The position numbers were made by a program, and so were the translations under genes. From the IMG/VR virus record IMGVR_UViG_2617271087_000004: a stretch of 64,000 nt of DNA; one strand, given 5' to 3'. The DNA is from a virus (taxonomy: Duplodnaviria; Heunggongvirae; Uroviricota; Caudoviricetes). Under the pieces are notes generated by a model. It was not told the origin of the DNA, ran no database searches, and worked only from the letters and a program-made list of their open reading frames with translations. Below, one piece after another: positions 4,861 through 40,061 of this stretch; position 1 is the stretch's first letter; the number at the start of each line of letters is the position of its first letter.

Positions 4861-6053
4861 TAATCATCATCCCCGTACAGTTTGCGGGTAACTTCTTCGT
4901 CTTCCTCCTCGTCTTCGTCCAGATCCTGTTCAAGCCATGCTTCGTTTGATATGCCTTCCGCATCGACATCACCATAACCACCTGTATCGACGATATCGGC
5001 AATTTCTTCTCTACGATGCTCAATCCACAATGCGGCATCAGCGCGGCGGCTGGCGGCCCGTTCTCGCGCGATTTTATCCAGATCTTCAAGTGATGGAGCG
5101 CCAGATGCTGTTTGGTTTTCCTCATCATCGGTATTGGTCTTAGGAGCACGCAGATCGGCTTTGATTTGCTCCAGCATCAGGGGAGGCACTTTTCCTCCAT
5201 GCGCCTCGATGAATTCAGCCGCTTCCAGCACTGACCAGTTATTTTCACGCTTTCGTTCGTATGCCAGCTTAACAATGCCAGCTTGCCCCATAGATAAAGC
5301 GTGCTTTTCCGCCTCCCGGCTTTCTTTTCGATAGTTATTCCGGATGCTGTAAATGGTGTTGATCAGGCTGCTTATCTGCGCGGAACAGCTGTTTAGCATG
5401 CTCGCGATACGGTATTCAGGCGGAGTACCTTCATCATCGTCTTTTTGCTGATCGCGCATTTCCTGCACTAGGCGAATACACGTATCCCTGGCGTTCTCCA
5501 GCATAAGGAGATGAGAAAGAGACTTTTCCAGAAGAGTGGTTTCCAGAACATCGGCCCCGGACCGACGCAACATAGCGCGCGCGGCCTTCCGCGCTTCAAC
5601 GTTATCTATCAGGTAATCGCCAGCTTCGAATTCAAAGCGTTCACCATCATCATCCAGGGTGTCGCGTTCCAGGCGATCACGTAAGGTACGGTGGGCGCGG
5701 GTGATCACGTCATGATCATCAGAACGATCATTTATGCGCTTATTTTGGCGCTTAGCGTTCTCGACTGCGGCACTGACAACAGCATTAACTCTTTGTTTTT
5801 CAGCCATTTCAGCCACAATGTGATCACCTGCACGTTGATCATTAGCGTGATCAATGATCATGCTTTTTAGAGGCTTCCTGACTGGCTTATTTGGCTTGCG
5901 GCTGTCCGCTGTCCTGGTGTCTTCTTTGAAGGCACGGAGATAACGACGTGCGGTATTAGGGTTAAGATTAAACTCGGCGGCATACTGTGCGATGGTGTAA
6001 CCACCATCTCGCGCCAGGCGAGCAAAATTCTTCTTGTGATCGTCCCAGGTCAC
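4860..6053 (-). CDS. pacA: PacA terminase small / pac-recognition subunit
   Basis: 397-aa ORF containing the clustered GATC-hexamer pac site. Confidence 0.85.
5685..5860. other. pac: pac packaging site: two clusters of TGATCA/G hexamers carrying Dam GATC sites
   Basis: Four hexamers at ~5685-5730 and four at ~5821-5860 inside pacA. Confidence 0.7.
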
Positions 6054-35876: not shown

Positions 35877-36225
35877 GTTGTAACCCTTGAATATCAACCA
35901 CAGAAAGCTCGTTTTTGTAGAAAAAGGCCAGGTTGAGGCACCCCCTAGTTTGAGCGTATGAGCTGGGACCAATTTCGTTCTTCCAGACAAATGGCTTCAA
36001 ATCCGTACGGCGAAGCATAAAAACGCGATTTGTTCCGCTCTGATTCCCAATGAGGCAAAAGCCTTCTTTCACCTTGATAGCCTGCAAGTTGTCGAGTTCA
36101 CCGCTGGTTACACGGCTATCGAACTCTTTGCGGCTTATTAGCTCCATCTGCATCTGACGACTCCAAACAAATACCCATTGAAGGGCGATGGCTGAATGGT
36201 ACCGAAAACACGACATAAAAAACAA
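35869..36225 (-). CDS. uhr: hypothetical protein upstream of hrdC
   Basis: 118-aa ORF; start adjacent to a C1 operator. Confidence 0.5.
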
Positions 36226-36241
36226 TATTTATTAGAGCAAT
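36225..36241 (-). promoter_or_regulatory. C1 operator
   Basis: atatttattagagcaat, 16/17. Confidence 0.6.
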
Positions 36242-36321
36242 CATGCAATAGTTAACACCATATAGACCACAAGTAACCTAAGTTAAAATAACGAAAACCA
36301 GAGCAAATAATTGGTGATGAC

Positions 36322-36606
36322 GTGGCAAGTATTGCAACAAAAGACAGCATTTGTTCGGGGCACGGAGGATTCCCATCCAGGCCTCCTGTAGAGAGTGAAC
36401 CACTACTTAAAGTCAACGGAGTCGAAGTGTTAGTTGATGGTAAGCAATATGCACAGCATACCGATGGAAACAGTACGCACGGTGGGCAAGCTATATCAAC
36501 CAGGGCATGGTTTACCGTCAATGGTAAAGGGATCGTATGCGTTGGTGACCCTGTTTCATGCGGATCTACCGTAGCGTCCGGAGACGGCCTGGTTCAGGTA
36601 AGTTAG
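36322..36606 (+). CDS. PAAR-like small protein (candidate spike-tip protein)
   Basis: 94-aa ORF with spaced Cys/His/Gly motifs (CSGHGG...THGG...CVGDPVSCGS). Confidence 0.45.
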   Translation: MASIATKDSICSGHGGFPSRPPVESEPLLKVNGVEVLVDGKQYAQHTDGNSTHGGQAISTRAWFTVNGKGIVCVGDPVSCGSTVASGDGLVQVS

Positions 36607-36614
36607 GAGATATC

Positions 36615-37403
36615 ATGCTGGAAAAAGACTACCAGTTATCCGCATATAAAAAATTGGCCGCCACCGGTGGGATGAAAACACCTGGTGCCATAACATCGGC
36701 ACGAAACAGTGCTAACACAGCAAAACTGCTTGCAGAAGAATTGACCGGATTAATTCTCGATACAATTGTCTATCCCGACACTATTACCAGCTATGTTTCA
36801 ACGATCAGAACAACCACAACCGGCTTAACGAACATTGGAGAACTGGCAACTAAGCACGCGGACCTGTTGGCTGGTTATGCTGATCTGTCAATGCTCCTTC
36901 AACTCGATATTGGTTGGGATGTTTACTGTCGTGCTAATGAGCGAGAAGTATCAGAACTGCCGATCTCTATTGCCATTGGTGATGTGACTATTACTAAATC
37001 GCTTGAGGACGCTGTAAACGCGCTTAATACATCAAGTTTAGTCGCTGCTATGGGGGAGATTAACCAGACCCTTAACACTGGCTCAGGAAGCTCGTCAGGC
37101 TCTGGTTCAGGCGGCGGCACTGCCACTCCCCCACCAGCACTAACAGAAGAGCAAATTGAATCTCTGAAAGTAGCAACTGAACAGTTTGGGGTTGTTTTCA
37201 ACCAGACAACAGCGCCCACAACTGCGTTACAACAGCAGTATGAACGAGCGAATGAAAGCGCCAACGTAGCCATAACTGCTTATAACCATGCTATCGGTAC
37301 CGCGCTTGCGGAAGCATCAGCAAATAAGGTCAGCACAGCCAGCGCAGTTGCCGCTTTGGTTCCTGATTCTGTTCTTGATGAATTAAACAAAGCGGCACAG
37401 TAA
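36615..37403 (+). CDS. hypothetical protein with Gly/Ser-rich linker (start moved to ATG with AGGAG SD)
   Basis: Track ORF 36558..37403; internal GSGSSSGSGSGGG linker. Confidence 0.5.
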   Translation: MLEKDYQLSAYKKLAATGGMKTPGAITSARNSANTAKLLAEELTGLILDTIVYPDTITSYVSTIRTTTTGLTNIGELATKHADLLAGYADLSMLLQLDIGWDVYCRANEREVSELPISIAIGDVTITKSLEDAVNALNTSSLVAAMGEINQTLNTGSGSSSGSGSGGGTATPPPALTEEQIESLKVATEQFGVVFNQTTAPTTALQQQYERANESANVAITAYNHAIGTALAEASANKVSTASAVAALVPDSVLDELNKAAQ

Positions 37404-37442
37404 CAAAGGACTTCATTGATAATTTTTCTTCAGGAGGAAGAC

Positions 37443-37865
37443 ATGTCATTCTTTTCTACGTTAAAAACAGCTTTGTCTTTGAAGGAGAAACTTGCTGCTA
37501 CTGGTGTTCTTGTTCTGATTTGCGCACTTGTTGGTGCTGGGTTTGCATGGGAACGTCATCAGCTAAAGCAAGCCATGGAGAAAATTGGCAGTCTTGGTCA
37601 GGCTGTTAAGGAACGTGATAAGTCAATAATGGATCTTAACCAGACCATTGAGACGATGAACAAAGCAGAGCAACATTTTCACAGCCAGGAAGTGAAAAAT
37701 GAATCAGAACAAGCCAAATATGCTGACAGGCAAATGGAACGAAAAGCTGAAGTTCAGAAACAACTGGTTGCGGCGGGTAATGTTCGCCAGCGCATTCCTG
37801 CTGACACTCAGCGGTTGCTCCGGGAGTCGATCAGCGAATTTAACGCCGACGCCGACAAAGGTTAA
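37443..37865 (+). CDS. i-spanin (Rz-like): N-terminal TM anchor plus coiled coil
   Basis: AGGAGG SD; TM segment TGVLVLICALVGAGFAW followed by coiled-coil region. Confidence 0.6.
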   Translation: MSFFSTLKTALSLKEKLAATGVLVLICALVGAGFAWERHQLKQAMEKIGSLGQAVKERDKSIMDLNQTIETMNKAEQHFHSQEVKNESEQAKYADRQMERKAEVQKQLVAAGNVRQRIPADTQRLLRESISEFNADADKG

Positions 37866-38031
37866 CCACCCTGCCCCCAAAAGTGCATTTATGTGCAGAA
37901 TGCCAGAGTTTAGCAGTGAATATTTTGATGATCTGCCAGCGTATATCCTCGATACAGAAACGATGCTGAAGGGGATTAACAGGAAGAATCGCAACGTTAA
38001 TGATTACAACCGTGCTATCAGCGGTAACTAA
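37777..38031 (+). CDS. o-spanin (Rz1-like) lipoprotein overlapping the i-spanin 3' end
   Basis: Lipobox LTLSGC then Pro-rich mature region; +1 frame overlap with the preceding ORF; start uncertain. Confidence 0.5.
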   Translation, partial: VMFASAFLLTLSGCSGSRSANLTPTPTKVNHPAPKSAFMCRMPEFSSEYFDDLPAYILDTETMLKGINRKNRNVNDYNRAISGN

Positions 38032-38472: not shown

Positions 38473-38874
38473 ATGTTTGCGGTTAAACAAGAAATAAACA
38501 ACGCTACTTCTTTGTTCGAAATTGAGAGTATTACCGTTGGATATCCTGGGTCAGATCAATTTAAACAGGCGTTCGAGATTGCTGAAGAACTGGGTATCAA
38601 AACGCCTGATGCGATTGAATATATCCCTGTTGCGTACGAAGATGAGGAGATGACAAAGGCAATCGGGGAAGAGCAAACTTTGAGTACAGAGCGTAAGGAT
38701 GTACAGCGGGATGACTGTATCGCCGTGATTTGCTCTGGGGTTGCTTCTGAAATGTTCCCCGACCTCCCTGCCATAGGAGGTGTTGGTTATCAATTCCTCT
38801 ACAAAGGTGATACGTTACGCATCTATACAAGTAGTTTGTTGATCGAAGAAGTAGGTACGGAAAACGACAACTAA
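38473..38874 (+). CDS. hypothetical acidic protein
   Basis: 133-aa ORF. Confidence 0.5.
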   Translation: MFAVKQEINNATSLFEIESITVGYPGSDQFKQAFEIAEELGIKTPDAIEYIPVAYEDEEMTKAIGEEQTLSTERKDVQRDDCIAVICSGVASEMFPDLPAIGGVGYQFLYKGDTLRIYTSSLLIEEVGTENDN

Positions 38875-39200: not shown

Positions 39201-40061
39201 ATGAATCAATCATTTATCTCCGATATTCTTTACGCAGACATTGAAAGTAAGGCAAAAGAACTAACAGTTAATTCAAACAACACTGTGCAGCCTGTAGCGT
39301 TGATGCGCTTGGGGGTATTCGTGCCGAAGCCATCAAAGAGCAAAGGAGAAAGTAAAGAGATTGATGCCACCAAAGCGTTTTCCCAGCTGGAGATAGCTAA
39401 AGCCGAGGGTTACGATGATATTAAAATCACCGGTCCTCGACTCGATATGGATACTGATTTCAAAACGTGGATCGGTGTCATCTACGCGTTCAGCAAATAC
39501 GGCTTGTCCTCAAACACCATCCAGTTATCGTTTCAGGAATTCGCTAAAGCCTGTGGTTTCCCCTCAAAACGTCTGGATGCGAAACTGCGTTTAACCATTC
39601 ATGAATCACTTGGACGCTTGCGTAACAAGGGTATCGCTTTTAAGCGCGGAAAAGATGCTAAAGGCGGCTATCAGACTGGTCTGCTGAAGGTCGGGCGTTT
39701 TGATGCTGACCTTGATCTGATAGAGCTGGAGGCTGATTCGAAGTTGTGGGAGCTGTTCCAGCTTGATTATCGCGTTCTGTTGCAACACCACGCCTTGCGT
39801 GCCCTTCCTAAGAAAGAAGCTGCACAAGCCATTTACACTTTCATCGAAAGCCTTCCGCAGAACCCGTTGCCGCTATCGTTCGCGCGAATCCGTGAGCGCC
39901 TGGCTTTGCAGTCAGCTGTTGGCGAGCAAAACCGTATCATTAAGAAAGCGATAGAACAGCTTAAAACAATCGGCTATCTCGACTGTTCAATTGAGAAGAA
40001 AGGCCGGGAAAGTTTTGTAATCGTCCATTCTCGCAATCCAAAGCTGAAACTCCCCGAATAA
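39201..40061 (+). CDS. repA: RepA plasmid replication initiator
   Basis: 286-aa ORF flanked by iteron arrays. Confidence 0.95.
   Translation: MNQSFISDILYADIESKAKELTVNSNNTVQPVALMRLGVFVPKPSKSKGESKEIDATKAFSQLEIAKAEGYDDIKITGPRLDMDTDFKTWIGVIYAFSKYGLSSNTIQLSFQEFAKACGFPSKRLDAKLRLTIHESLGRLRNKGIAFKRGKDAKGGYQTGLLKVGRFDADLDLIELEADSKLWELFQLDYRVLLQHHALRALPKKEAAQAIYTFIESLPQNPLPLSFARIRERLALQSAVGEQNRIIKKAIEQLKTIGYLDCSIEKKGRESFVIVHSRNPKLKLPE

Follow-up and report, generated by a model that had tools for sequence, protein, structure and literature searches.

The two genes considered here, upfC and upfB, lie in a 64,000-nt stretch of DNA from a virus of the Caudoviricetes (IMG/VR record IMGVR_UViG_2617271087_000004; hereafter the window), and their closest described counterparts belong to the tail of phage P1. 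The annotated P1 record notes a similarity of UpfC to T4 gp5.4. The 2004 annotation of P1 reportedly already suggested from the sequence that UpfC is the spike tip. HHpred likewise linked UpfC to gp5.4 in the work of Gonzales et al. (2022), in which ΔupfC phage plaqued normally, and cryo-electron microscopy (cryo-EM) at 3.2 Å placed monomeric UpfC as the tip on trimeric gp5 in P1 (PMC12810830, 2026). With HHpred support in 2022 and cryo-EM in 2026, the role of UpfC as the P1 spike tip is settled. The 2026 study also assigned UpfB to a "novel tripod" anchored on the spike tip; a tip-bound UpfB tripod has thus already been proposed, and what we add is comparative support for this weaker half of the claim.

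A first-pass annotation of the window, made from the sequence alone, had described the pair (36322-37403) as a PAAR-like small protein and a Gly/Ser-linker protein beside a plasmid replicon, possibly a detached module of spike tip and effector. The best overall explanation, to which we give a probability of roughly 80%, is that upfC and upfB encode the distal end of a P1-type tail puncturing device. The features on which this explanation rests are:

36322-36606, + strand: upfC, a 94-residue PAAR/gp5.4-type spike-tip protein with a GTG start (PDB 9vyi_A match, PHROG 281, His/Cys tetrad)
36605-36609, + strand: putative AGGAG ribosome-binding site of upfB, read from the sequence, overlapping the upfC stop TAG at 36604-36606 and 5 nt before ATG 36615
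36615-37403, + strand: upfB, a 262-residue acidic all-alpha protein, the reported 'tripod' (phrog_1559, AlphaFold2 model, literature)
37080-37118, + strand: Gly/Ser run of UpfB, residues 156-168, in the hinge (predicted local distance difference test score, pLDDT, below 50 at residues 157-170)
26724-27356, + strand: gene 5, the trimeric tail spike (full-length match to PDB 9vzk_q 'Gp5', E=1.1e-136)

UpfC as the tip of a P1-type spike

Over the 2.7 kb around both open reading frames (ORFs), identity with P1, P7, SJ46, RCS47 and further Punavirus phage records is 96-98%. Alignment of the window to the annotated P1 genome gives the two ORFs the names upfC and upfB, and both the gene order and the C1 operator are the same as in P1. 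Judged by its sequence, the window is a P1-like phage-plasmid and the two ORFs are upfC and upfB.

UpfC is identical to PDB chain 9VYI_A ("UpfC") at 93 of 94 positions (E=1.7e-60), the sole difference being Ser85 in the window where P1 has alanine. Further matches in the PDB search were a T4-type chain (9f4b_BA, E=4.8e-10), T4 gp5.4 (5iv5 and 4ku0, E~1e-7) and the PAAR protein of the Vibrio cholerae type VI secretion system (T6SS; 4jiv_D, E=3.7e-4). The ORF at 26724-27356, which the first-pass annotation had called a gpV-like spike, is the gp5 of the window because it matches PDB 9vzk_q 'Gp5' over its full length. The suggestion of a detached spike tip therefore holds: the identity of UpfC, its fold and its position on gp5 follow from cryo-EM of the 99%-identical P1 protein. 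That annotation had also held that absence of the protein from virions would speak against a tip, and PDB entries 9VYI and 9VZK contradict such an absence.

A search with the PAAR profile, which the first-pass annotation had proposed as a check, gave a full-length match of UpfC to PHROG 281 'PAAR motif' (E=2e-30). The Pfam PAAR_motif family (PF05488) scored 26.4 bits (E=8.5e-6), 0.6 bit under the gathering cutoff of 27, and the more divergent orthologues at relatives' loci L011 and L013, as well as that at L008, exceeded this cutoff with 38.8, 44.8 and 28.6 bits, respectively. Against the NCBIfam T6SS PAAR equivalog NF033420, UpfC scored 36.3 bits (cutoff 124) and is not a member, and no T6SS genes are found near it in the phage-plasmid.

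The spaced Cys/His/Gly pattern on which the PAAR proposal had been built is real. In an alignment of nine orthologues and two T4-type gp5.4 proteins, ten positions are invariant over all 11 sequences: G13, H14, G33, H46, H53, G55, G68, D76, C80 and G81. PAAR proteins and T4 gp5.4 have been described as carrying an apex zinc site of three histidines and one cysteine (PMC10715212), and His14, His46, His53 and Cys80 of UpfC correspond to it as a predicted metal site.

Public records name this family inconsistently. UpfC orthologues appear as 'putative phospholipase' and as 'PAAR motif of membran proteins', the SJ46 locus includes an 'alanine racemase', and the gp5.4-like chain 9f4b_BA of PDB 9F4B is also named 'Phospholipase'.

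UpfB and its proposed link to the spike tip

The upfB gene is shorter than annotated. The mechanical ORF begins at 36558, and the P1 RefSeq entry gives 281 residues from this upstream ATG with an overlap of 49 nt with upfC (window 36558-36614 = P1 NC_005856 64771-64827). All 37 aligned UpfB family members begin with ML(D/E)xxxQ (in its fuller form, ML(D/E)xxxQxxA(F/Y)) and the PAAR stop abuts the corresponding ATG in many lineages; thus, the real start is 36615, giving 262 residues. The AGGAG Shine-Dalgarno site also favours ATG 36615.

UpfB matches phrog_1559, a family of unknown function, at E=1.6e-137 over residues 1-262 of 263, and it is 96-98% identical to the UpfB proteins of the P1 family, with few substitutions relative to P1. 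An exhaustive search of 1.84 billion representatives yielded 57 relatives at 50% clustering, about 35 of them full-length (245-265 residues) and reaching down to 22% identity. The carriers are Escherichia, Salmonella, Enterobacter, Leclercia, Edwardsiella and Vibrio, mostly as contigs of 80-135 kb. No Pfam or NCBIfam relative was found. Sequence matches of UpfB in the PDB were only to artificial Gly/Ser linkers of fusion constructs and were dropped as low-complexity artefacts.

An AlphaFold2 model of UpfB built on a 20-sequence alignment (pLDDT 80.9, predicted template modelling score 0.77) contains helices only, arranged in modules at approximately residues 24-155 and 178-237. The only internal low-confidence stretch is 157-170 (pLDDT <50), and the GSGSSSGSGSGGG run at residues 156-168 lies inside this disordered hinge joining the two modules. 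The first-pass description of a 262-residue protein with a long linker between two domains is therefore borne out. The hinge is kept across the family as 4-24 residues of Ala, Pro, Thr, Gly and Ser; since its composition varies, the Gly/Ser run is one local form of a flexible linker of general type. An origin of the run from a slippage-prone DNA repeat was ruled out, as Tandem Repeats Finder reports nothing there. The best-conserved block of the family is the N-terminal ten residues (pLDDT ~50 in the monomer model), which may serve as a docking segment. Weak structural matches of the model in BFVD (E 0.01-0.06, TM-score 0.31-0.47) were to DUF7217 proteins of approximately 240 residues from Pectobacterium phage Wc4 and Serratia phage vB_SmaA_3M, which other phages might use as analogous helical accessory proteins.

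The strongest comparative evidence for UpfB on the tip is its linkage to the PAAR gene. Loci were assembled by tracing distant UpfB genes to their contigs and by a separate set seeded on the PAAR protein, and all were scored with UpfB, UpfC, gp5 and gp6 profiles. A same-strand UpfB-family gene lies downstream in 47 of 48 distinct UpfC-type PAAR genes, within 12 nt in 38 of the 47. The spacer in the window is 8 nt, and four other lineages have the PAAR stop codon overlapping the start of UpfB as TGATG or TAATG. Edwardsiella and Vibrio elements still show the linkage at UpfB identities as low as 22-25%. In the Edwardsiella-type loci L003-L006, a holin-like ORF of 122-129 residues (in L003, 5633-6001, matching phrog_3427 at E=2.4e-8) stands between the PAAR gene and UpfB, as one does in L098 (8296-8685), and one to four small genes intervene in L013 and L098-L100. 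The lone exception, L123, is a GC-rich P2/Mu-type phage in which PAAR comes after a gpV-type spike and before gpW/gpJ, without UpfB; UpfB therefore belongs to the P1-type spike lineage alone, as an addition. As the first-pass annotation had proposed, the two genes form a module. Linkage down to 22% identity together with translational coupling is what is expected of two subunits in one complex, which supports the tripod assignment without proving contact.

The timing of expression bears on the same question and involves these neighbouring features:

37440-37865, + strand: ppfA, an Rz-like i-spanin and the next same-strand gene after upfB (phrog_89, E=2.7e-25)
37699-38031, + strand: mlp, an Rz1-like o-spanin lipoprotein overlapping ppfA in another frame (phrog_30284, E=3e-76; P1 annotation)
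36225-36241, - strand: the 17-bp C1 operator Odmt (Op68), base for base the P1 operator and annotated for the divergent Pdmt promoter
22558-22576, + strand: late promoter LP26, AAATGACTA-N4-TAGAAT, which drives the 26-25-7-24-6-5 operon (P1 annotation and sequence)

In published RNA sequencing of P1vir (PMC8201110, Table S1; log fold changes at 10 and 30 minutes), upfC rises from 4.9 to 10.6 and upfB from 4.1 to 11.1. These profiles fall inside the range of 23 virion genes (2.8-6.0 at 10 minutes, with a rise of 4.9-8.2) and outside that of 15 early and plasmid genes; ppfA/mlp show the same late profile. Thus, the pair is expressed late with the virion and lysis genes. The genes uhr, hrdC and dmt are already high at 10 minutes (8.6-9.4). 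The operator beside upfC, correctly recognized in the first-pass annotation as a C1 operator, is identical to P1 Odmt/Op68, and its regulation of upfC was ruled out: the annotation assigns it to the divergent Pdmt, and at 10 minutes upfC is low while uhr, hrdC and dmt are high. The implied connection of the pair with this operator and the replicon is accordingly positional only, since the operator serves the divergent early operon while upfC and upfB are late.

No + strand terminator was found between upfC, upfB, ppfA/mlp and upfA, or after gene 5 (scan of 27200-27600). Late transcription of the pair by read-through from LP26 across the antisense block is possible, as is an atypical promoter. 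A sigma-70-like site at 36283-36311 was considered as a upfC promoter and was no better than chance. Elsewhere in the window, an exact AAATGACTA-N4-TAGAAT late-promoter copy occurs at 53844-53862 (+), and a weak two-mismatch late motif, AAAGGACTT-N4-GATAAT, lies at 37405-37423 (+), 17 nt before the ppfA start. The latter could be a candidate late promoter for the spanin genes.

Several points weigh against placing UpfB on the tip. The tripod was assigned by fitting an AlphaFold3 (AF3) model of UpfB into medium-resolution density, UpfB itself "could not be resolved", and the study reports no mass spectrometry (PMC12810830). UpfB also goes unmentioned in the 2022 virion proteome obtained with liquid chromatography-tandem mass spectrometry (LC-MS/MS); this is weak evidence because the definite virion proteins UpfC, gp5, gp26 and PmgA were missed as well. 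The stoichiometry is ambiguous, being a 'three trimeric tripod' in PMC12810830 and 'three copies' in a second 2026 paper, where AF3 gives a UpfB-UpfC complex. Shared regulation, with no physical contact, can also account for conserved synteny, and UpfB has lysis genes beside it just as constantly; they lie downstream in every lineage as spanins, amidase and holin, or endolysin. Finally, no Lpa-type late promoter was found in the 96 bp upstream of upfC (36226-36321, + strand) by a scan for the -22 box and -10 motif with two mismatches, a scan that recovers LP26, LPpmgL and LP23. On balance, from the AF3 fit and the synteny we infer that UpfB would form the tripod, as we infer its copy number there.

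An alternative, by analogy with the T6SS toxins that PAAR proteins carry, is that UpfB is a cargo or effector brought by the UpfC tip to the periplasm or the inner membrane, where it might help to open a channel, block defence or exclude other phages. We consider this improbable. The 'effector-like' character given to UpfB by the first-pass annotation found no support: searches of Pfam, NCBIfam, PDB sequences and folds detected no enzymatic or toxin domain, hydropathy analysis detected no transmembrane segment (net charge about -13; maximum 19-residue hydropathy 1.06), the downstream neighbours are spanins (in relatives a holin, endolysin or amidase) with no immunity, adaptor or chaperone gene among them, and the literature describes a structural tripod.

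Less probable still is that UpfB is not a virion protein at all, having a role in the lysis cassette or another late intracellular function, with the tripod density belonging to a different protein. Lysis genes do always adjoin upfB, whether Rz/Rz1 in P1, the holin-like ORF in Edwardsiella, amidase and holin in Vibrio or endolysin in L010. UpfB shares its expression profile with ppfA/mlp, it is unreported by virion LC-MS/MS, and its identification by cryo-EM came by model fitting only. However, tail-end genes followed by a lysis cassette are a common phage order, so adjacency tells little, and UpfB lacks the transmembrane helix, signal peptide, lipobox or lysis-family similarity (PHROG, Pfam) of such proteins. 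The lysis partner varies between lineages while the PAAR partner is constant, and the tight coupling by overlapping stop and start is to PAAR rather than to the spanins. Additionally, the outgroup with a different type of spike is without UpfB, and the AF3 modelling of a second group also yields a UpfB-UpfC complex. An assembly chaperone or temporary cap, shielding the tip or timing gp5 attachment and largely absent from mature particles, would fit the co-expression, the gene coupling, the failure of LC-MS/MS to report UpfB and the missing plaque phenotype, but is very improbable, as mature extended virions show tip density that accommodates the UpfB model and the proteome also missed known virion proteins of similar or lower copy number.

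If UpfB sits on the tip, the distal end of the tail might work as follows. UpfC, a single-domain PAAR/gp5.4-type cone held by a predicted His3Cys metal site, gives the gp5 spike its sharp end. The two-module UpfB, flexible at its hinge, would dock on this cone to give a three-legged cap below the baseplate. One late transcript would carry both genes along with those of the spanins, so that the proteins are made during tail assembly. Upon sheath contraction, the gp5-UpfC-UpfB assembly would be the first part of the virion to enter the outer membrane, and UpfB, a non-enzymatic accessory, may be displaced or carried in during penetration. CRISPR interference scores upfB and upfC as non-essential, and with the upfC deletion this makes both genes dispensable for plaque formation. 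Because both are dispensable for plaques on laboratory E. coli, UpfB is probably not required for penetration. Most likely it is a non-enzymatic accessory in envelope penetration or host range, and it probably tunes such penetration on some hosts.

Separation of the tip genes from the spike gene

Adjacency of the tip gene to the spike gene is typical of the PAAR/gp5.4 family, if not strictly defining, and is not seen in the window, where gene 5 ends 8,965 nt upstream of upfC. The first-pass annotation was thus right that the pair lies far from the baseplate genes, and also that it lies beside the plasmid replicon (repA, 39201-40061). The features involved are:

25715-26731, + strand: gene 6, the baseplate hub, directly upstream of gene 5 (relatives' synteny; hub role from the cryo-EM study PMC12810830)
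27357-36321, mostly minus strand: the 8,965-nt block between spike gene and tip gene, with dbn, ban, a suspected Band_7 gene, small ORFs, dmt, hrdC and uhr

On one side, upfC-upfB are flanked by the C1-controlled divergent uhr-hrdC-dmt genes and on the other by ppfA/mlp, upfA, oriR-repA and parAB; between upfB and the replicon stand ppfA/mlp, upfA and one extra ORF. Relatives arrange these genes differently. The order gp24-gp6-gp5-PAAR-UpfB is uninterrupted in L011, L012, L098-L106 and L124 (Vibrio-type and several metagenomic relatives), and gp6 homologues lie directly upstream of gp5-PAAR-UpfB in L011, L013, L015 and L098. From the end of gp5 to the PAAR gene there are just 6-19 nt in L011 and L098-L106 (Vibrio-type and other relatives). 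Elsewhere the interval is 0.26, 2.5, 3.7, 4.2, 4.6, 4.8, 5.5, 5.8, 6.8 or 7.3 kb. The spacing widens in steps between lineages, starting at 8 nt and reaching 9 kb. The adjacency of gp5 and PAAR in relatives indicates that their separation in the window is secondary. In those relatives where its content was inspected, the inserted block includes an RdgC homologue and a Dam-type methylase. After UpfB and the lysis genes comes the major capsid gene in relatives without a replicon there, and oriR-repA-par in P1.

The pair looks detached because early and accessory genes, approximately 9 kb in all, were gained by P1 at the gene 5/upfC junction, while the ancestral gp6-gp5-PAAR-UpfB order survives in relatives. 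Two later blocks split the tail operon: early genes came to lie between gene 5 and upfC, and genes for plasmid maintenance separate the spanins from gene 23. Thus, the tail operon once ended at upfC and upfB, and their proximity to the replicon and the C1 operator comes from later insertions. In this way the comparative analysis explains why the tip genes are found next to the replicon and away from the baseplate genes.

A broader proposal joins two separate ideas. UpfB may be the phage counterpart of PAAR-borne T6SS cargo: non-enzymatic, helical, seated on three faces of the tip, released into the envelope on puncture, and, where hosts are natural, encapsulated or of the smooth-lipopolysaccharide type, conditioning host range or the entry of DNA. 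Separately, the gene 5/upfC junction may be a lineage-wide integration hot spot for early and accessory genes, holding from 0 to 9 kb. We regard this combination as unlikely.

Other features of the region differ from P1 or recur in relatives. The segment 38036-38900, from mlp to oriR, is unlike P1 and P7, with a 119-residue UpfA variant (PF13876) and an extra 133-residue ORF at 38473-38874 (phrog_1453); among phage records it is common only to vB_EcoM-813R1. A 275-residue ORF at 30154-30981 (- strand) lies between ban and dmt, where P1 has tci/plp. In the Edwardsiella-type loci L004 and L005, 277-residue Band_7 (PF01145) genes stand upstream of the partition genes; by size and position, we suspect that the 275-residue ORF is related to them. 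The Dmt-like methylase of L010 (54-3500; 1,148 residues) has Hint_2 and LAGLIDADG hits, which suggests that this methyltransferase carries an inserted intein. In L008, a small crAss001_48/'Sequestin' gene (5490-5735; PF21825, E=5e-15) lies directly upstream of PAAR and overlaps it, following a HicAB toxin-antitoxin pair in the inserted block.

Comparison with other PAAR-tipped spikes

To the published account of the P1 tip, this analysis adds the family-wide PAAR-UpfB linkage, an ancestral gp5-PAAR-UpfB order with a graded series of insertions, and a corrected upfB start. It also brings out that UpfB was assigned to the tripod by model fitting. What a cap that is acidic, three-legged and dispensable does on a tip that pierces membranes is now a testable question of specialist interest.

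The nearest known system beyond P1 is T4 gp5.4 (4KU0, 5IV5). Like UpfC, it is a single-domain protein of approximately 95 residues with the His3Cys tetrad and the glycine pattern (E~1e-7). A single copy sits at the end of a trimeric beta-helical spike as its cap, and it too is dispensable for plaques. However, the two proteins are only ~31% identical, T4 gp5 has a lysozyme domain that P1 gp5 lacks, and gene 5.4 is close to gene 5 while upfC lies 9 kb away. T4 is without a UpfB homologue, and the second 2026 paper speculates that gp5.1 has an analogous role.

T6SS PAAR proteins (V. cholerae VCA0105, 4JIV; PF05488; NF033420) share with UpfC the conical fold family, the apex zinc site, which is predicted in UpfC, and the capping of a trimeric spike, VgrG in the T6SS. 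They can be a platform for attached proteins. In contrast, UpfC is without an N- or C-terminal extension domain, and its partner UpfB has neither a toxin domain nor an immunity gene. Lastly, the P2/Mu-type phage at L123 resembles the P1 type in having a 96-residue PAAR protein with the same conserved residues directly after its spike gene. It differs in that the spike belongs to another family (gpV-type, 125 residues) and gpW/gpJ follow PAAR in place of UpfB.

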